Origin: a bacterium
GTDB taxonomy: Bacteria; Patescibacteriota; Patescibacteriia; JAGPKW01
DNA: 30,591 nucleotides
Direction of reading: 5' to 3'
Assembly (NCBI GenBank): GCA_035417885.1
Contig: DAOLQA010000003.1
Location: 1-30,591 of the forward strand
Shown: one piece after another, positions 2,527 through 28,406 of the stretch
Layout of the letters: the number at the start of each line of letters is the position of its first letter
Numbering within the stretch: the stretch's first letter is position 1
Program-made: the position numbers and the translations under genes
The notes under the pieces: model-generated
What the model saw: the letters and a program-made list of their open reading frames with translations, nothing else
What the model was told of the DNA's origin: nothing
Database searches by the model: none

Positions 2527-3405
2527 CTATATAAAATACTTGTATAATCTATTGATTTCAACTACATCTACATTAAAATTTTTTAATTCCTCCAAAATTA
2601 AATCCTTATATTCTTTTTCTTGCCGTATATATTTTTCTGAAAGATGATAAATGATTATTTTCCCTATATTTGCTTTATTATTTTTTATGGCTTTTGATAA
2701 ACTTTCTAAGTCTGTATGTGCTGCGTCTAGTTCTTTTTTCGTTAAAAATGTGCACTCGTGCATTAATATCTCAGTATCTTTCAACTTTTTAAAATCTATT
2801 GGCAAAGAATCACCACAATAAGTTATAAAAGTATAATCATTTATATTATATATATCTATATTATTATTTTTTAATTTATTTATAAATTCAGCCTTTGCTT
2901 TATTTGATGTCAATTTATCTATTTTATTTTTATACACACTTTTTAAACTTTTTCTATATTCTAACAATCTAAAACCACACGCTGTTAATCCTTTTTTATA
3001 ATATTTAGCGGTATGATCTACTTCAAAAGGTTCAACAAACTTTTTACCATCTATTTCTATTTTTTCATTAAAATTAAATGGGATAAAATCAAAGACATTT
3101 TTAATATCTAAACTCTTTAATGCAAATTCTATATTTTTAATTTCATATTCATTATTTCTATGATAAAAAACTTTAACCTTTCTATTATTTTTTCTTGTAA
3201 CTCTTGACAAAAAACATCCTATTCCAATTAATCCAATATAATGGTCTTTATGAAAATGGGATATAAAAATATATTTAATATCACTTGTATGTATCCCTAA
3301 TGTATAACAAGCTGATTCTCCGCAATCAAACATAACATTATACCTAGGGAAGTAAAACCAGGTTCCAAAAATAGCTTTAGATTGTCCTATTATATATGGA
3401 GTCAT
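2527..3405 (-). CDS. rnz: Short-form tRNase Z (MBL fold), Thermotoga (TM)-type
   Basis: IIGQSKAIFGTW, FDCGE, SHFHKDH (HxHxDH), basic arm YRKSLK, YCGDS, HECTF, AHTD, YHLSEKY; N-terminus resembles T. maritima tRNase Z as I recall it. Confidence 0.78.
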   Translation of the reverse strand: MTPYIIGQSKAIFGTWFYFPRYNVMFDCGESACYTLGIHTSDIKYIFISHFHKDHYIGLIGIGCFLSRVTRKNNRKVKVFYHRNNEYEIKNIEFALKSLDIKNVFDFIPFNFNEKIEIDGKKFVEPFEVDHTAKYYKKGLTACGFRLLEYRKSLKSVYKNKIDKLTSNKAKAEFINKLKNNNIDIYNINDYTFITYCGDSLPIDFKKLKDTEILMHECTFLTKKELDAAHTDLESLSKAIKNNKANIGKIIIYHLSEKYIRQEKEYKDLILEELKNFNVDVVEINRLYKYFI

Positions 3406-21080: not shown

Positions 21081-21109
21081 AATATGGCATTATCTTTAAA
21101 TGCCATATT
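21081..21109 (-). terminator. Hairpin/terminator after the Kazal gene
   Basis: AATATGGCAT-9 nt-ATGCCATATT perfect 10-bp inverted repeat, 12 bp past the stop. Confidence 0.65.
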
Positions 21110-21121
21110 ATATATTGTATA

Positions 21122-22165
21122 TTACTTATTTTTCATTTTTGGCTTAAATATACTCCTAAAAAACTCTTTTATTCTTACAAAAATAGTTCGTTTTTTTGCT
21201 ATTGGTTCTTTTACTAGATTTGTCTTTACACTTTCCTGGATTATTTCATTTTCCTTTATCATTTGTAAATTATCTATTTTTACAACACCTGACGGCTCCA
21301 AATGGGTAGTGATTTCAACTGTATAATTATTATATCCATCACTAAATTCAAATCTTAAATTATTATCATTAATCCAATTAATTTCTCCTATAATATAAAA
21401 CTGCTTGCCATAGCTGCTTTCTATACCATAATTTTTTGCTATTTGTGTTATATTGTTTTTAATATATTCTTCTATAATATTTTTATCATCATTTTTTTTA
21501 TCTACTTCTTTACCATTATCTTTTACTAAATAAAACAAATCTACTTTTATACCATATGGGTTGTCTTTTGTTTTTTCTAAAACATTAGTAAAAGCAAATA
21601 AATTTGCAATATATGATACATGCCCATCCTCATATTCTACTTGAAGTAAATTTAAATTATCCTCATAAACCCAATACATGTTTGTTACATAAAACTTCCC
21701 TCCCAATACTTCATGAATCCCAAAATCATTTGATATCTTAGATATATTATCTCTTACATATTCTTCTATTCTGTTTCTGTCTTCCTGACTCATTAAACTA
21801 TCTGCACAAATTCTTCTACTAGTATTATCACTTAACAAGCATGGGTCTACTATTTGTGTTGTACCATATCCACATTTCTGACCATTTAGACCACCTATAC
21901 ATCTGGGGATATTGCTAGCACTATAGCCATCTTCACATCTACCTTTATATAAAAATTTTGCTAGCTTATTTTTTCTCATTTGGCACATGTTGCTAAATGT
22001 TTGATAAACTGGATCACATGGGGCTTTTATACACTCAATCTGAACTTCTGCACATACTGGATCATATTCCATAGTGCAAGCACCAGTATCAATATTATCT
22101 AAATCTGATGCTTCAACTTGTATAGTAAGTAGGGAAAATAATATAAATAAAAATGCTTTTTTCAT
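21122..22165 (-). CDS. Secreted protein with a Kazal-type serine protease inhibitor domain and a duplicated unknown domain
   Basis: Signal peptide; ACTMEYDPVC...TFSNMC...LYKGRC; repeats IEEYVRDNISKI and IEEYIKNNITQI; amphipathic basic C-terminus. Confidence 0.8.
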   Translation of the reverse strand: MKKAFLFILFSLLTIQVEASDLDNIDTGACTMEYDPVCAEVQIECIKAPCDPVYQTFSNMCQMRKNKLAKFLYKGRCEDGYSASNIPRCIGGLNGQKCGYGTTQIVDPCLLSDNTSRRICADSLMSQEDRNRIEEYVRDNISKISNDFGIHEVLGGKFYVTNMYWVYEDNLNLLQVEYEDGHVSYIANLFAFTNVLEKTKDNPYGIKVDLFYLVKDNGKEVDKKNDDKNIIEEYIKNNITQIAKNYGIESSYGKQFYIIGEINWINDNNLRFEFSDGYNNYTVEITTHLEPSGVVKIDNLQMIKENEIIQESVKTNLVKEPIAKKRTIFVRIKEFFRSIFKPKMKNK

Positions 22166-22183
22166 ATAATTAATATTATTTAA

Positions 22184-23137
22184 TTATTCTGTCGCGATTG
22201 TTATATCCCCACATTTATCTTTTGAGGTATTTACAACATCCATAATATCATCTATTTTGGGTTCATATCCTGTTATTTTTGTTCCATCTTTTAATGTTGC
22301 TGAAACTAGCAGACTATGTGCTTGCATTATATCTTTAACATTACAATTTTCTATTGCTGATTTTATATTTAACCATGATGTATCAACTACTGCATTATTA
22401 TTTATAATATTATCTACTTCTTCATAACCTGTTAAATATGAATAATTATACCTAGCTGGAAGAGCAAAAATATATTTATCGTTTCTAGCTAATTCTCTTG
22501 GATTTATTGGGGCAGCACCTATATGGAACTTATCTGCTTGCATATTATCCCATTGTTCTGATATAAATACCATAACTGGTATATCTTGCCTTGGATTTTC
22601 TTTTGTCCATTCTGGATGTCTTATAGATATTAATGGACCTTGTTCAACCTTATTTGCTATTGCTCCATAAGAATCATAATAATTACCAGACCATTTGTCA
22701 GAAATTATAGAAAATCCTTTCCATGTGCTTGGTAGTAGAACGCTAAAACCATAATCAGCATTGTCATATTGAATTTGTTCTCTTGTATTTGCTGTTGAAC
22801 AGTTATTAAATGTAGTATTACCATTTTCTTCTATAAAAGCAGTATCTCCTTTATTCCAAAAGACAAATGATTCATCTTGGTTTGCATATCTTGCACCAGA
22901 TGCAGAAATTGCCTGTGGAATCAACATGTTCCTACCATCACTTAATGTAAGTTCTACTTTCCCATTAAAAAATAGGGCATGTATACTTTTATTATTGTCA
23001 CAATTGAATGTCACATCTGCTATAATATTATTATCGTTCGTAGCTTCTTGAGGTGCTGATTTGTTTGTACTTACAATGTATATTATTCCTCCCACTATCA
23101 ATAATACCCCAATTGATATTGGTATTATTTTTTTCAT
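22184..23137 (-). CDS. Membrane-anchored multidomain protein with an MliC/PliC lysozyme-inhibitor domain
   Basis: N-terminal TM; FNCDN...ISASGARY...FWNKGD...NC (MliC motifs and the Cys pair); about 200 further aa unassigned. Confidence 0.85.
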   Translation of the reverse strand: MKKIIPISIGVLLIVGGIIYIVSTNKSAPQEATNDNNIIADVTFNCDNNKSIHALFFNGKVELTLSDGRNMLIPQAISASGARYANQDESFVFWNKGDTAFIEENGNTTFNNCSTANTREQIQYDNADYGFSVLLPSTWKGFSIISDKWSGNYYDSYGAIANKVEQGPLISIRHPEWTKENPRQDIPVMVFISEQWDNMQADKFHIGAAPINPRELARNDKYIFALPARYNYSYLTGYEEVDNIINNNAVVDTSWLNIKSAIENCNVKDIMQAHSLLVSATLKDGTKITGYEPKIDDIMDVVNTSKDKCGDITIATE

Positions 23138-26803: not shown

Positions 26804-26839
26804 AAAAAGTATTATAATACTTTTTTATTTATAATTCAA
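26804..26839 (-). promoter_or_regulatory. sigma70 promoter with a 22-bp palindrome over the -10 box
   Basis: Minus strand TTGAAT-17 bp-TATAAT; 26804-26825 AAAAAGTATTATAATACTTTTT is a perfect palindrome. Confidence 0.55.
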
Positions 26840-28406
26840 TCATATATGCCTCACCATTCGTAAAAAATGCATCTCCTGCAAAATTTTTACCAAGTGTTGG
26901 GGGAACAAATAATTGTTTATTATATTTTTTTATTAATCCTGTTTGATTTAAATCATTAAATAAAAAATCTCTTTCAGTATCTATGTCTGGTGCTATTGTA
27001 TGTGTTATGCCCCATTTTATACCAATGTCTAAACTTGCTGTACCTAAATAGACTTTTTTACCATCTATTAATATATTAGTTTCCCAGAATCTAGCATGAT
27101 GCCTTTTCCTCGAAGTATTTTCTATTGTTGCTTTTTCAAAACCAAAATTATGAACCTGAGTATTCCAAAAAGATGGCGTCATAGGAGCTGATGAATCTTG
27201 TTTGTTTTTTATTGCTGCAATAATAACATTAATTACTGATTGTAATGTTGGTTTTTGAGCTAATTCCCAACCAGCTTTGTTAAATAAATTTATTAAATCA
27301 GTATCACTATTCGCAATAATTATAAAAGAAATTGGTTCTTCTACCTGGCCAGATAATTGTTCAGAATATTTAGATATTTTATTACTATCAAATTGTTTAT
27401 TTATATCAGAATTTACATACTGCATATTAATATTTTTTGAAAAAGATACTTTTAATGGATTTATTTTTTGTTTAAACAATAATGTAAAAGATACCAACAA
27501 TAGAATAAATGCTAATACAAATAGATAAAAATTTTTTAAATTTTTATTTTTATTATTTTTTATAAAGAATAATTCAGAAATACATATTGAAGACAATAAG
27601 CTAATTAAACCAAGCAAAAATCCACCTAACACATCGGTCAGATAATGAGCACCTAAATAAAGTCTGCTAAAACCTACAAGAATAGAAATTATAATAAAAG
27701 CAATAATATATAAAATCTTATTTCTGTTTTTCTTAGAATTTTTTACAAGAAAATAACAAATAAACCCAAAAAATGCTACAACTATTGTTGCATGGCCACT
27801 TGGAAATGAGGCACTGGATTCAGCATAAAAACTTATGCTTGGTCTTGGCCTGTTGAATATAATTTTTAATAAAGAATCTAGTATAGAAGCGCTACCTATT
27901 GAAATAAAAAATGGAAATATATATTCTTTATTTTTAGAAATATATAAAAATATAGAAAATAATGCAGCCCCTGCTAATATCATTTTTGAATCTGCAATGT
28001 TTGTTATAAAAGTAAATATATTTATTAAGTGTTGATCTCTAAAAAATAAAAATAAATTGTTCAATCTAAGATCATATTGAAATACTAGTTCCTGATTAAT
28101 ATACCCCTCGCCGATAGAAATAAACCATATAATACATATAAGTATTGTGAATAAAAAGATTGTCAATTTTAATCCATATTTACTATTTTTATCAAACCTG
28201 TCATTTAGAAACTTTTTGAATCTGGGATGATTATCAAAAAATGCTTTTATAATTTTATTACTACTTATTGTTTTTAATATAGATTTAAAAACATCAATTA
28301 AAAGATTATATAACCAAAGTAAAAATTGTTTTATTGATTTTCTAAAAATAATAATAAGTGCAAGTAGAATTAATAAAATTGATGGAATAAGAATAAACAA
28401 GTTCAT
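26829..28406 (-). CDS. PAP2 lipid phosphatase fused to an LssY C-terminal domain
   Basis: KIIFNRPRP, SFPSGH, SRLYLGAHYLTDV; C-terminal EPISFII..GW..SAPMTPSFW..FEK..RHHARFW..LGTAS.D.G..H.I.PDID.ERD. Confidence 0.9.
   Translation of the reverse strand: MNLFILIPSILLILLALIIIFRKSIKQFLLWLYNLLIDVFKSILKTISSNKIIKAFFDNHPRFKKFLNDRFDKNSKYGLKLTIFLFTILICIIWFISIGEGYINQELVFQYDLRLNNLFLFFRDQHLINIFTFITNIADSKMILAGAALFSIFLYISKNKEYIFPFFISIGSASILDSLLKIIFNRPRPSISFYAESSASFPSGHATIVVAFFGFICYFLVKNSKKNRNKILYIIAFIIISILVGFSRLYLGAHYLTDVLGGFLLGLISLLSSICISELFFIKNNKNKNLKNFYLFVLAFILLLVSFTLLFKQKINPLKVSFSKNINMQYVNSDINKQFDSNKISKYSEQLSGQVEEPISFIIIANSDTDLINLFNKAGWELAQKPTLQSVINVIIAAIKNKQDSSAPMTPSFWNTQVHNFGFEKATIENTSRKRHHARFWETNILIDGKKVYLGTASLDIGIKWGITHTIAPDIDTERDFLFNDLNQTGLIKKYNKQLFVPPTLGKNFAGDAFFTNGEAYMIEL

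Follow-up and report, generated by a model that had tools for sequence, protein, structure and literature searches.

A window of 30,591 nucleotides of a Patescibacteria genome, which is the whole stretch of DNA that was analysed, contains two adjacent minus-strand genes for proteins with extracytoplasmic topology signals, the first with a MliC domain and the second with a variant of the Kazal module. The balance of the evidence leans slightly toward two genes, probably co-transcribed, whose multidomain products are displayed at the envelope and each carry a hydrolase-inhibitor module at the N terminus. The gene 1 protein would be held by a single N-terminal transmembrane helix with the MliC beta-barrel exposed outside the cell, where a c-type lysozyme or related muramidase would receive the loop-4 SxSGAxY motif in its active-site cleft, and predicted PsbP-like and FtsH-periplasmic-like domains come after the barrel. 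The gene 2 protein would be secreted via a cleavable signal peptide and would display the Kazal-derived module, whose CTMEY loop, with Met at P1, would occupy the active site of a serine protease of the subtilisin, chymotrypsin or elastase type like a substrate, as canonical inhibitors do; spacer domains, followed by an amphipathic C-terminal helix, may keep this protein on the cell surface. The two proteins may also cooperate, although cooperation, like the inhibition and its target enzymes, is something that we infer.

Gene order and transcription signals

The coordinates of the two genes and of the parts of their products are given in Table 1. Both open reading frames of the original prediction are present on the minus strand, adjacent and co-directional at the distance of 18 bp that it gave, with no terminator-like site in the spacer. 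The single terminator that it listed was also recovered as a strong hairpin, which lies 12 nt past the stop codon of gene 2 and has a folding energy of -18 kcal/mol (z -3.87), with 0 of 200 shuffles folding as well. Its one promoter candidate found no support. The sigma-70 scan returned 31 sites, near the 25.7 expected in 27% GC DNA, with no minus-strand site in the 66 bp that precede gene 1, and the scan is uninformative in DNA this rich in AT. The two genes are probably co-transcribed. They sit within a 15-kb run of co-directional genes, and the surrounding genes (PAP2, ABC exporters, a MacAB-like pump, and an ECF sigma factor) form an envelope-function neighbourhood. An alternative genetic code is unneeded here, as all open reading frames of the window are long under table 11. 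Many of the homologues in the databases belong to lineages in which TGA is recoded, and have W at positions where G would be expected.

Table 1. Positions of the gene pair, of the regions of its two products, and of nearby signals in the window
Feature	Position	Strand	Basis and details
Gene 1 (P0001, 317 aa), membrane-anchored MliC / PsbP-like / FtsH-periplasmic-like protein	22184..23137	minus	ORF and translation; AlphaFold mean pLDDT 85.9
N-terminal signal-anchor helix, residues 8-23	23069..23116	minus	Helix in model and hydrophobic stretch; no lipobox Cys
MliC domain, residues 36-118	22784..23032	minus	SASGARY 78-84, FWNKG 93-97, Cys46, Cys113
PsbP-like middle domain, residues 119-252	22382..22783	minus	Homologues, invariant columns, fold match
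C-terminal alpha+beta domain, FtsH-periplasmic-like, residues 253-317	22187..22381	minus	Foldseek and VIA
Intergenic spacer, 18 bp	22166..22183	minus	Gene 1 stop codon to gene 2 ATG; no terminator-like site inside
Gene 2 (P0002, 347 aa), secreted Kazal-variant protein	21122..22165	minus	ORF and translation
Cleavable signal peptide, residues 1-20, ending VEA/S	22106..22165	minus	Sequence; helix 2-18 in model
Kazal-variant module, residues 28-78	21932..22084	minus	CTMEY loop, P1 Met32; Cys30/38/61/77; insert Cys45/Cys50
Cys-rich linker, residues 79-125	21791..21931	minus	Cys89, 98, 109, 120; pLDDT <50
Alpha+beta4 repeat 1, residues 126-217	21515..21790	minus	Helix and four strands, pLDDT 80-91
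Alpha+beta4 repeat 2, residues 226-307	21245..21490	minus	pLDDT 82-94
Basic amphipathic C-terminal helix, residues 326-347	21125..21190	minus	Helix 328-339 in model; kept in orthologues
Terminator-like hairpin after gene 2	21081..21109	minus	11-pair stem, then T-rich tail

MliC domain and architecture of the gene 1 protein

The MliC domain of gene 1 is genuine by the combined measures of HMM, fold, motifs, and disulfide positions, and the original assignment of both the domain and its SASGARY and FWNKG motifs is confirmed. The Pfam model PF09864 matches residues 44-109 with an E value of 4.7e-14 and a score of 52.6 bits, where 22 is the cut-off, and it reached 55.8 bits when the genome was scanned. 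Comparison of the modelled domain (pLDDT ~85-95 within the domain) with solved structures resulted in VIA Z values of 11.1 for PliC-St (3oe3; rmsd 2.2, 77 aligned), 10.3 for Brucella PhiA, 9.6 for 4mir, and 8.9 for E. coli YdhA (2f09; 34% identity), and the Foldseek search gave a TMt of 0.71 with a probability of 1.00. A phmmer alignment with 2f09 (E 3.5e-8) places the motifs and both cysteines in register. The lysozyme-contact signature of the MliC family consists of the loop-4 motif SxSGAxY, which enters the lysozyme active site, and a second motif, YxxxTKG (PMC5507604). The SASGARY segment of gene 1 lines up with ISASGARY in E. coli MliC and with ISASGAKY in that of P. aeruginosa, and the KG of the second motif and both cysteines also align with these two proteins. 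In contrast to the family consensus, the second motif reads FVFWNKG, with the KG kept, Tyr replaced by Phe, and Thr by Asn; the E. coli counterpart is YVFWSKG, and the Lys of FWNKG varies within the MliC subfamily, being Glu in L075 and Val in P0040. Cys46 and Cys113 align with the Cys pair of YdhA and PliC, are invariant in alignment A6, and are predicted to form a disulfide.

With the members of the MliC/PliC family (YdhA/MliC 2f09, P. aeruginosa MliC 3f6z, and Salmonella PliC 3oe3; PF09864, COG3895) the domain has in common the eight-stranded barrel (Z 8.9-11.1), the loop motif, the KG of the second motif, the beta1-beta8 Cys pair, and a position outside the cytoplasmic membrane with a tether to it. 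The anchor of gene 1, however, is a transmembrane helix in place of a lipobox, and the domain is fused to the PsbP-like and FtsH-periplasmic-like domains in a protein of 317 aa, compared with ~100 aa in the family. The Patescibacteria are generally regarded as lacking an outer membrane.

The MliC domain accounts for about a quarter of the gene 1 protein, the most conserved part of which is the PsbP-like domain with 25 invariant alignment columns. This domain is 55-62% identical to ~180-aa proteins of Patescibacteria, Paenibacillus, and Clostridium, cyanobacterial PsbP (2xb3) matches residues 119-253 with a VIA Z of 5.6, and one homologue, P0086, matches PF18933 (PsbP_2) at 27.7 bits. For the C-terminal domain, 4v0b was matched with a Foldseek probability of 1.00 (TMt 0.75), and 7vhq, 2muy, and 4m8a with VIA Z values of 7.2-7.5 (rmsd 2.0-2.3). 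This multidomain context was absent from the original prediction; each inhibitor module makes up only ~15-25% of its protein.

Kazal-derived module and architecture of the gene 2 protein

Homology supports the gene 2 module as a Kazal-derived variant that lies outside classical membership. The predicted ACTMEYDPVC motif is present at residues 29-38 (CTMEYDPVC at 30-38) and is an ovomucoid-type loop with Met at P1. The Pfam model Kazal_1 gives 15.8 bits for the full-length protein and 19.7 bits for residues 20-130 alone, each below the cut-off of 21, with a match spanning only the reactive loop (residues 27-39), and Kazal_2 reaches 11.6 bits where 22.8 is required. Classical Kazal domains have six cysteines, joined in disulfides 1-5, 2-4, and 3-6. 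In gene 2, the canonical Cys1 and Cys5 are absent, Cys30, 38, 61, and 77 are the equivalents of Cys2, 3, 4, and 6, and a 12-residue CIKAPC insert adds two cysteines (Cys45 and Cys50); the predicted disulfide pairs are 30-61, 38-77, and 45-50. The same four-Cys core is found in short bacterial Kazal modules that pass Pfam. When the profile of the variant module (A4) was aligned by hhalign with that of 14 such short modules (A5), all 14 of which pass both Kazal_1 and Kazal_2, the match reached 98% (E 2.7e-13, 37 columns) and covered the whole domain, with the 12-residue insert. Searched against the PDB, the A4 profile finds almost exclusively Kazal inhibitors (best E 1.3e-3). A profile search was needed here; the gamma-glutamyltranspeptidase matches obtained for residues 20-135 in a single-sequence PDB search are chance (E 0.67). 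The fold searches with gene 2 are silent on whether the module has the Kazal fold, in which a short helix packs against a small three-stranded sheet, because its model has a pLDDT of 40-62 over residues 20-80, too low for such a search. The original Kazal call thus stands as to homology and the intact loop, but not as to the Pfam cut-offs, and only four of the six canonical cysteines are in place.

The alignment of Kazal-variant modules contains 17 invariant columns. Across 196 variant modules the P1 position is occupied by 12 residue types (including M 78, K 32, A 19, L 16, T 14, R 13, and E 11), with Thr at P2 in 165 and Glu at P1' in 118; judged from sequence, variation at P1 alongside a retained P2 Thr and P1' Glu is what canonical inhibitors show. 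Variant and classical Kazal modules also alternate inside single proteins, for example P0153. Compared with the Kazal inhibitors (MEROPS I1, ovomucoid third domain), the C-T-M-E-Y-x-P-V-C segment of gene 2 matches the ovomucoid-type P3-P3' residues, the T-[YF]-x-N-x-C segment and the C-terminal G-x-C are collinear, also with the short non-classical inhibitors 1y1b (Anemonia elastase inhibitor) and 2m5x (Galleria silk protease inhibitor 2), and the variant family shares with the Kazal inhibitors a hypervariable P1 and occurs in tandem arrays together with classical modules. In contrast to these inhibitors, the gene 2 module has the CIKAPC insert in place of the G-x-D-G turn and heads a 347-aa protein with unrelated domains. 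The short two-disulfide Patescibacteria modules (C-T-M-E-Y-x-P-V-C-G-x-D-G-x-T-Y-G-N-x-C, PF00050-passing) are its direct homologues and share with the variant both phylum and proteins (P0153, P0014, and P0012), but have neither the insert nor the longer helix segment N-K-L-A-K-F-L of the variant.

About 270 of the 347 residues of gene 2 belong to other domains, namely the Cys-rich linker, the two repeats, and the amphipathic tail. Ten full-length orthologues were found (52-68% identity); the orthologues keep the MKK and hydrophobic start, and the linker cysteines are kept in nearly all of those aligned. Repeat 1, which recurs after Kazal modules in P0012, P0014, and P0020, has only generic VirB8/NTF2/cystatin-like matches (VIA Z up to 6.3), and the matches of repeat 2 to CagV (VIA Z 7.5) and CRES cystatin (6.4) are not distinctive, with weak Foldseek rows to latexin and fetuin (E 8e-3). 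Assignment of the repeats as cystatin or PepSY domains was rejected, as all rows were generic (VIA Z <=7.5, Foldseek E 8e-3, atlas TM <=0.52), and an ESM Atlas feature search with residues 125-310 returned nothing usable. The C-terminal amphipathic helix is a possible surface or membrane tether, and the Kazal proteins of L075 and L180 have analogous aromatic amphipathic tails at their ends.

Conservation of the pairing and possible function

The pairing of the two genes is conserved loosely and is confined to one small clade of relatives. It is retained in same-species contigs, and L001 has the same order and orientation in a kept neighbourhood, with one zinc-finger gene and a 288-bp gap between the two genes. 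The MliC-then-Kazal order recurs in a distant Patescibacteria lineage of high GC content (L075, L150, and L180; GC 50-57% compared with 27% here), the gaps in the paired loci being 18, 31, 44, and ~60 nt at a MliC-domain identity of only 53-61%. All MliC loci with a Kazal neighbour fall within one 8-member clade of the MliC tree, a clustering matched by 0 of 500 label shuffles. Among the other homologues of either gene, the nearest (L003, L004, L013, L132, L151, and L181-L183) are unlinked, and these include gene 2 orthologues in L003 and L004 and a gene 1 orthologue in L013. In the locus survey, for which the MliC HMM was built with jackhmmer, the partner was present at a single one of the 79 non-self Kazal-variant loci and, likewise, at one of the 78 non-self MliC loci. 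The Kazal-variant module was found in 0 of 10 other MliC-bearing Patescibacteria genomes (positive control run), and genome-level co-occurrence outside the genus was nil among the 301 + 401 genomes sampled. MliC seems to be missing from the same-genus genome G001 only because that assembly contains a run of N. No protein among those fetched contains both modules, and DUF333 is a third module that is fused separately to MliC and to Kazal-variant modules. The two-gene unit that was originally proposed is upheld in part by the recurring order, but only in one small clade, with most homologue loci unlinked; linkage elsewhere was seen in this clade, and co-occurrence was not seen in the 10 other MliC genomes sampled.

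The distribution of the pair bears on a somewhat unlikely explanation in which the genes are merely neighbours that encode independent envelope proteins, each of which may or may not be an inhibitor, with synteny inherited in an envelope-function neighbourhood and no functional coupling. The 15-kb co-directional string, the zinc-finger gene inside the retained L001 neighbourhood, the unlinked majority of homologue loci, and the nil co-occurrence outside the genus are consistent with this, as is the second lineage, in which the order PAP2-then-MliC (L150, L180, L182, and L183) has been retained at more loci than MliC-then-Kazal. However, order, orientation, and short gaps persist from 27% to 57% GC despite the divergence of the MliC domains, both modules fuse separately to DUF333, and chance adjacency is very unlikely because MliC is present in only ~1.5% of sampled genomes. 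It is distinctly improbable that the Kazal-like module is a disulfide-stabilised binding or structural module with no protease inhibition, of the sort present in eukaryotic matrix proteins, and that gene 2 encodes an adhesin or spacer protein. Kazal-like domains without inhibitory activity occur in follistatin, agrin, and SPARC, and the sub-threshold Pfam scores, non-canonical Cys pattern, insert, low-confidence model, and large share of other domains with a generic alpha+beta fold would fit such a role, whereas the intact C-T-P1-E-Y-x-P-V-C consensus, a scaffold that is invariant while P1 varies, and tandem arrays of the kind typical for multi-headed inhibitors, in which the variant alternates with classical modules, argue for an inhibitor.

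The two inhibitor modules could instead act on enzymes of the cell itself or its host bacterium and not against foreign attack, with the Kazal module restraining the cell's own S8 subtilase and MliC restraining a lytic transglycosylase or other muramidase at cell-cell contact, which we regard as unlikely. c-type lysozymes are animal enzymes, and the likely habitat is other than animal tissue, the bin name of one close relative suggesting a sludge digester. A secreted S8 subtilase of 660 aa is encoded elsewhere in the genome, on another contig and without linkage to the pair. Complex prediction for the Kazal-variant module with this subtilase gave a score of 0.49 compared with 0.02 for the best control, with contact agreement between runs of >=91% and a partner pLDDT of >=75. 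Of the solved complexes, 58 of 80 reach the mark used, as do 2 of 110 mismatches, and scores of <=0.60 count as weak passes, so that the support is weak; the pass may also reflect memorised structures because Kazal-subtilisin complexes have already been solved. Partial inhibition of MltA and MltB by E. coli MliC and Ivy is reported in vitro, but the effect of MliC on the lytic transglycosylases was weak and binding was not detected (PMC10139938). The roles given in the original prediction, a surface shield of the cell and its pili or a restraint on host autolysins, are hypothetical, and a tie of either gene to pili did not emerge in this analysis; literature searches on Kazal with MliC, Kazal in Patescibacteria, and lysozyme inhibitors in the candidate phyla radiation found nothing relevant.

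Patescibacteria have minimal genomes and live attached to other cells, and their survival of foreign cell-wall and protein hydrolases is a poorly known topic that the pair of putative inhibitors addresses. Its value is modest because both domains are variants within known families, MliC proteins of Patescibacteria are already so named in public records, and the pairing is limited to one small clade. A broader and rather doubtful interpretation is that the MliC-then-Kazal pair is an old cassette of a modular inhibitor-head toolkit (MliC, CIKAPC-type Kazal, DUF333, and a YFDGCNxC module) that Patescibacteria shuffle onto surface-tethered scaffolds against muramidases and proteases of hosts, competitors or grazers. 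If this were true, at least 1,400 representative proteins would make up a separate and so far uncatalogued inhibitor subfamily, that of the CIKAPC Kazal variant. A membrane-tethered MliC, together with a large Kazal subfamily that has an additional disulfide loop, would bring two classical inhibitor families to the Patescibacteria, and the MliC domain and Kazal-variant module would offer simple, testable reagents.

The gene pair and its surroundings

The two genes lie as adjacent open reading frames on the minus strand of the window, which has a GC content of 27%, with a spacer of 18 bp between gene 1 and gene 2. The original prediction had described them as a co-directional hydrolase-inhibitor unit, and both this arrangement and its single terminator were recovered. 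Folding and a terminator scan place a hairpin with an 11-pair stem 12 nt past the gene-2 stop codon (-18 kcal/mol, z -3.87; 0 of 200 shuffles fold equally well), and the scan found no terminator-like site between the genes. The single promoter candidate proposed for the pair did not hold up: the consensus scan returned 31 sites where 25.7 were expected, and the 66 bp of intergenic DNA preceding gene 1 contained none, so that a dedicated promoter is unsupported. The surrounding co-directional string comprises a PAP2-LssY_C gene, two ABC exporter half-pairs, genes 1 and 2, two small membrane proteins, an HlyD-ABC-MacB pump, a DUF5666 protein and an ECF sigma factor. The source genome (G000) is of the Patescibacteria type, 0.99 Mb in 82 contigs and 72% complete. 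A 98%-identical relative is the Patescibacteria group bacterium isolate Gw_SlDig_bin_327.

Features of the gene pair, the encoded proteins and related loci
Feature	Location	Strand	Basis or remark
Gene 1 (P0001), 317 aa	22184-23137	minus	ORF
N-terminal helix	gene-1 residues 8-23		AlphaFold model; no lipobox Cys
Eight-stranded barrel (MliC)	gene-1 residues 36-118		AlphaFold model
PsbP-like middle domain	gene-1 residues 119-252; window 22382-22783		weak likeness, Z 5.6
C-terminal domain resembling FtsH periplasmic domain	gene-1 residues 253-317		Z 7.2-7.5, Foldseek probability 1.00
Gene 2 (P0002), 347 aa	21122-22165	minus	ORF
Cleavable signal peptide	gene-2 residues 1-20		predicted
Kazal-variant module, 48 residues	gene-2 Cys30 to Cys77
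Hairpin	21081-21109		folding and terminator scan
PAP2-LssY_C, two genes upstream of MliC	26829-28406
PAP2 phosphatase directly upstream of MliC	L150 1478-2221; L180 2447-3004; L182 2330-2986; L183 2367-2996
Zinc-finger gene	L001 5171-5713		PF23477, 180 aa
Secreted S8 subtilase	G000 contig 17; L178 1542-3524		660 aa
Second Kazal protein	G000 contig 74, 515-622; L016 2-814		5'-truncated ORF

The MliC protein

The AlphaFold model of the gene-1 protein (mean pLDDT 85.9) has four parts. Pfam MliC scores 52.6 bits over residues 44-109 (cut-off 22), and the barrel resembles Salmonella PliC (Z 11.1, rmsd 2.2, 77 aligned), Brucella PhiA (Z 10.3), Neisseria ACP (Z 10.2) and E. coli YdhA/MliC (Z 8.9, identity 34%). 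The family signature motifs are SxSGAxY and YxxxTKG, and loop 4 of the family occupies the lysozyme active site (PMC5507604); hen lysozyme is inhibited by both MliC and PliC (PMC2267010). In the sequence alignment, SASGARY (residues 78-84) stands opposite ISASGARY of E. coli and ISASGAKY of P. aeruginosa MliC, FVFWNKG opposite YVFWSKG and YIWWTKG of solved MliC proteins, and Cys46 and Cys113 opposite the disulfide cysteines of solved MliC barrels. Given the Pfam score, the barrel fold and the aligned motifs and cysteines, the MliC identity first proposed from the SASGARY and FWNKG motifs is sound.

The MliC domain makes up just a quarter of the protein. Far better conserved than this head is the PsbP-like domain, the best-conserved part of gene 1, with 25 invariant columns that include Arg173, His174, Asp185 and His205, and no Pfam family scores above cut-off on the protein there. 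With 55-62% identity it matches stand-alone proteins (~180 aa) from Patescibacteria, Paenibacillus and Clostridium, some of the Paenibacillus homologues carrying SLH domains. The main business of the gene-1 protein may be the role of this domain.

The Kazal-variant protein

The Kazal inhibitor domain of the original prediction stands as homology, while the Pfam cut-offs for PF00050 and PF07648 are not reached: Kazal_1 aligns the loop alone (15.8-19.7 bits, cut-off 21) and Kazal_2 scores 11.6 bits against 22.8. A profile of 18 variant modules (A4), run against all PDB sequences, matches hardly anything but Kazal inhibitors (best E 1.3e-3), among them Galleria silk protease inhibitor 2, the Anemonia elastase inhibitor, infestin, SPINK7 and dozens of ovomucoid third domains, with collinear loop and T-[YF]-x-N-x-C / G-x-C segments. 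An exhaustive profile search with the variant module returned 1,408 representative proteins, of which 619 reach E <= 1e-10. Many contain 2-10 copies, and several have variant and classical modules in alternation, as in P0153 (variant, classical, second insert variant, classical). Fourteen short classical modules from variant-carrying proteins (A5), all 14 of which pass Kazal_1 and Kazal_2, align with A4 in hhalign at 98% probability (E 2.7e-13), a 12-residue insert of the variant replacing the G-x-D-G turn position of the classical modules. Judged by the PDB profile search, the alternation of modules and the hhalign comparison, the gene-2 module is a Kazal derivative although it fails the family threshold. 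Relative to the family it keeps the positions of Cys2, 3, 4 and 6, lacks Cys1 and Cys5, and gains Cys45 and Cys50 within the insert (CIKAPC).

In the ovomucoid-based Laskowski numbering, as we take it to apply here, Cys30 is P3, Thr31 P2, Met32 P1 and Glu33 P1'. Of 196 variant modules, 165 have Thr at P2 and 118 have Glu at P1'. The P1 residue is Met in 78, Lys in 32, Ala in 19, Leu in 16, Thr in 14, Arg in 13 and Glu in 11, with further residue types in the rest. In canonical inhibitors the specificity residue varies on a fixed scaffold, and this spread of P1 is the pattern that would be expected of them.

The remainder of gene 2 comprises a Cys-rich linker with four conserved cysteines that has no confident model (pLDDT below 50), two helix-plus-four-strand repeats (pLDDT 80-94) with generic fold matches only (VirB8, NTF2, cystatin or PepSY-like), and a basic amphipathic C-terminal helix. 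Repeats of this type also come after Kazal modules in the proteins P0012, P0014 and P0020, which belong to TGA-recoded relatives. The second Kazal protein of the genome is helical, with a short module of the classical type at its end (Kazal_1 38.9 bits, loop C-S-N-Y-Y-E-P-V-C-G).

Linkage of the pair and proposed function

The 18-bp arrangement is kept in contigs of the same species (L011 and L012; L098 and L099). An apparent absence of MliC in the same-genus genome G001 proved to be an artefact, a run of N at ~3025-3130 of locus L008 (G001 contig 96) replacing most of the gene. In L001, the nearest relative of a different species (63-67% identity), both genes occur in the same neighbourhood, separated by a zinc-finger gene and a 288-bp gap; a TspO gene lies 3' of its Kazal gene. 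Gene-2 orthologues in L003 and L004 (52-61% identity) and the gene-1 orthologue in L013 (54%) stand in unrelated contexts. MliC was found in 6 of 301 sampled genomes of the class and 6 of 401 of the phylum (~1.5-2%); 21 of the class-level genomes carry gene 2 or its modules.

The two-gene unit of the original prediction survives in part: the order recurs in three further loci, but in most loci the genes are unlinked or partnerless, and the variant module was found in none of 10 other MliC-bearing genomes, with a positive control run. A six-frame scan for MliC of 80 Kazal-variant loci from GTDB species genomes gave one match, L075 (50% GC), where a 148-aa TM-plus-MliC gene is directly followed by a signal-peptide-plus-Kazal-variant gene. 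Among 80 metagenome MliC loci scanned for Kazal modules, one beyond the window's own species matched, L150 (57% GC), with PAP2, MliC and, 31 nt on, Kazal; L180, with 90% MliC identity to L150, is arranged likewise. In a maximum-likelihood phylogeny of the MliC domain, a rough one from an alignment of just 79 columns, all five Kazal-neighboured loci fall in a single clade of eight (support 87/90), a clustering equalled in 0 of 500 label shuffles. Within this clade L132 and L151 have no Kazal neighbour and L165 is too short to show either way. The high-GC relatives L181-L183 (63-71% identity) have lost the Kazal gene. The simplest reading is a single old juxtaposition retained in few lineages, across 53-61% MliC-domain identity and GC contents from 27% to 57%, with repeated loss elsewhere. 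Because MliC is so rare, the linkage is more than chance, and it falls far short of an obligate operon.

In the high-GC lineage PAP2 adjoins MliC in four loci, L182 and L183 included, and PAP2-then-MliC seems to be retained more often than MliC-then-Kazal. Some proteins carry DUF333 (PF03891, 'putative hemolysin') joined to the Kazal variant, and others carry it joined to MliC (among P0012-P0026 and P0369, P0381, P0398, P0406, P0409 and P0410). In both lineages the Kazal proteins have an amphipathic helix at the C-terminus; these shared features hint at a link between MliC and Kazal modules. A further Cys module (Y/W-F-D-G-C-N-x-C), with a faint Pacifastin-like match, often accompanies these modules, and together they resemble a reshuffled collection of small secreted Cys modules. 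CIKAPC modules also occur in records labelled DPANN archaea (L042, archaeon UBA583; L078, Woesearchaeota KatS3mg002) and in bins labelled Gammaproteobacteria, Paludibacter and Rhizobium, which could reflect transfer between small-celled symbionts or mis-binning.

On balance we favour two surface-tethered inhibitor proteins, probably made from one transcript, in which the MliC head would inhibit a lysozyme-like muramidase and the Kazal-variant head a subtilisin-, chymotrypsin- or elastase-type protease, the extra domains of both serving as spacers or anchors. Mere neighbourhood of the two genes, which the many unlinked loci would suit and the recurrence of the gene order from 27% to 57% GC would not, appears rather unlikely. 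Less probable again is that the modules control enzymes of the cell itself or of a host bacterium, a reading compatible with the favoured one. C-type lysozymes are animal enzymes, and the habitat is likely a digester. Lytic transglycosylases are weakly inhibited by E. coli MliC without detectable binding (PMC10139938). The Kazal modules may have an endogenous target in the secreted S8 subtilase of the same genome, which has C-terminal FG-GAP-like repeats. The predicted complex of this subtilase with the gene-2 module scored 0.49 (best control 0.02), a weak pass on a scale where passes up to 0.60 count as weak and where 58 of 80 solved complexes and 2 of 110 mismatches reach the mark; across runs at least 91% of contacts agree, with partner pLDDT of at least 75. 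Since Kazal-subtilisin complexes have already been solved, the prediction conveys likeness at most. A Kazal-like module without inhibitory function, to which the missing cysteines might point and the P1 pattern would run counter, is the most improbable of these alternatives.

Public records already give MliC proteins of Patescibacteria that name, and bacterial Kazal domains are catalogued in Pfam. Our literature search found no paper on the CIKAPC variant, a TM-anchored multidomain MliC, or MliC-Kazal or PAP2-MliC linkage. New here are the CIKAPC insert variant as a large uncatalogued Kazal subfamily, the TM-anchored multidomain MliC architecture, and the clade-limited MliC-then-Kazal and PAP2-then-MliC linkage.
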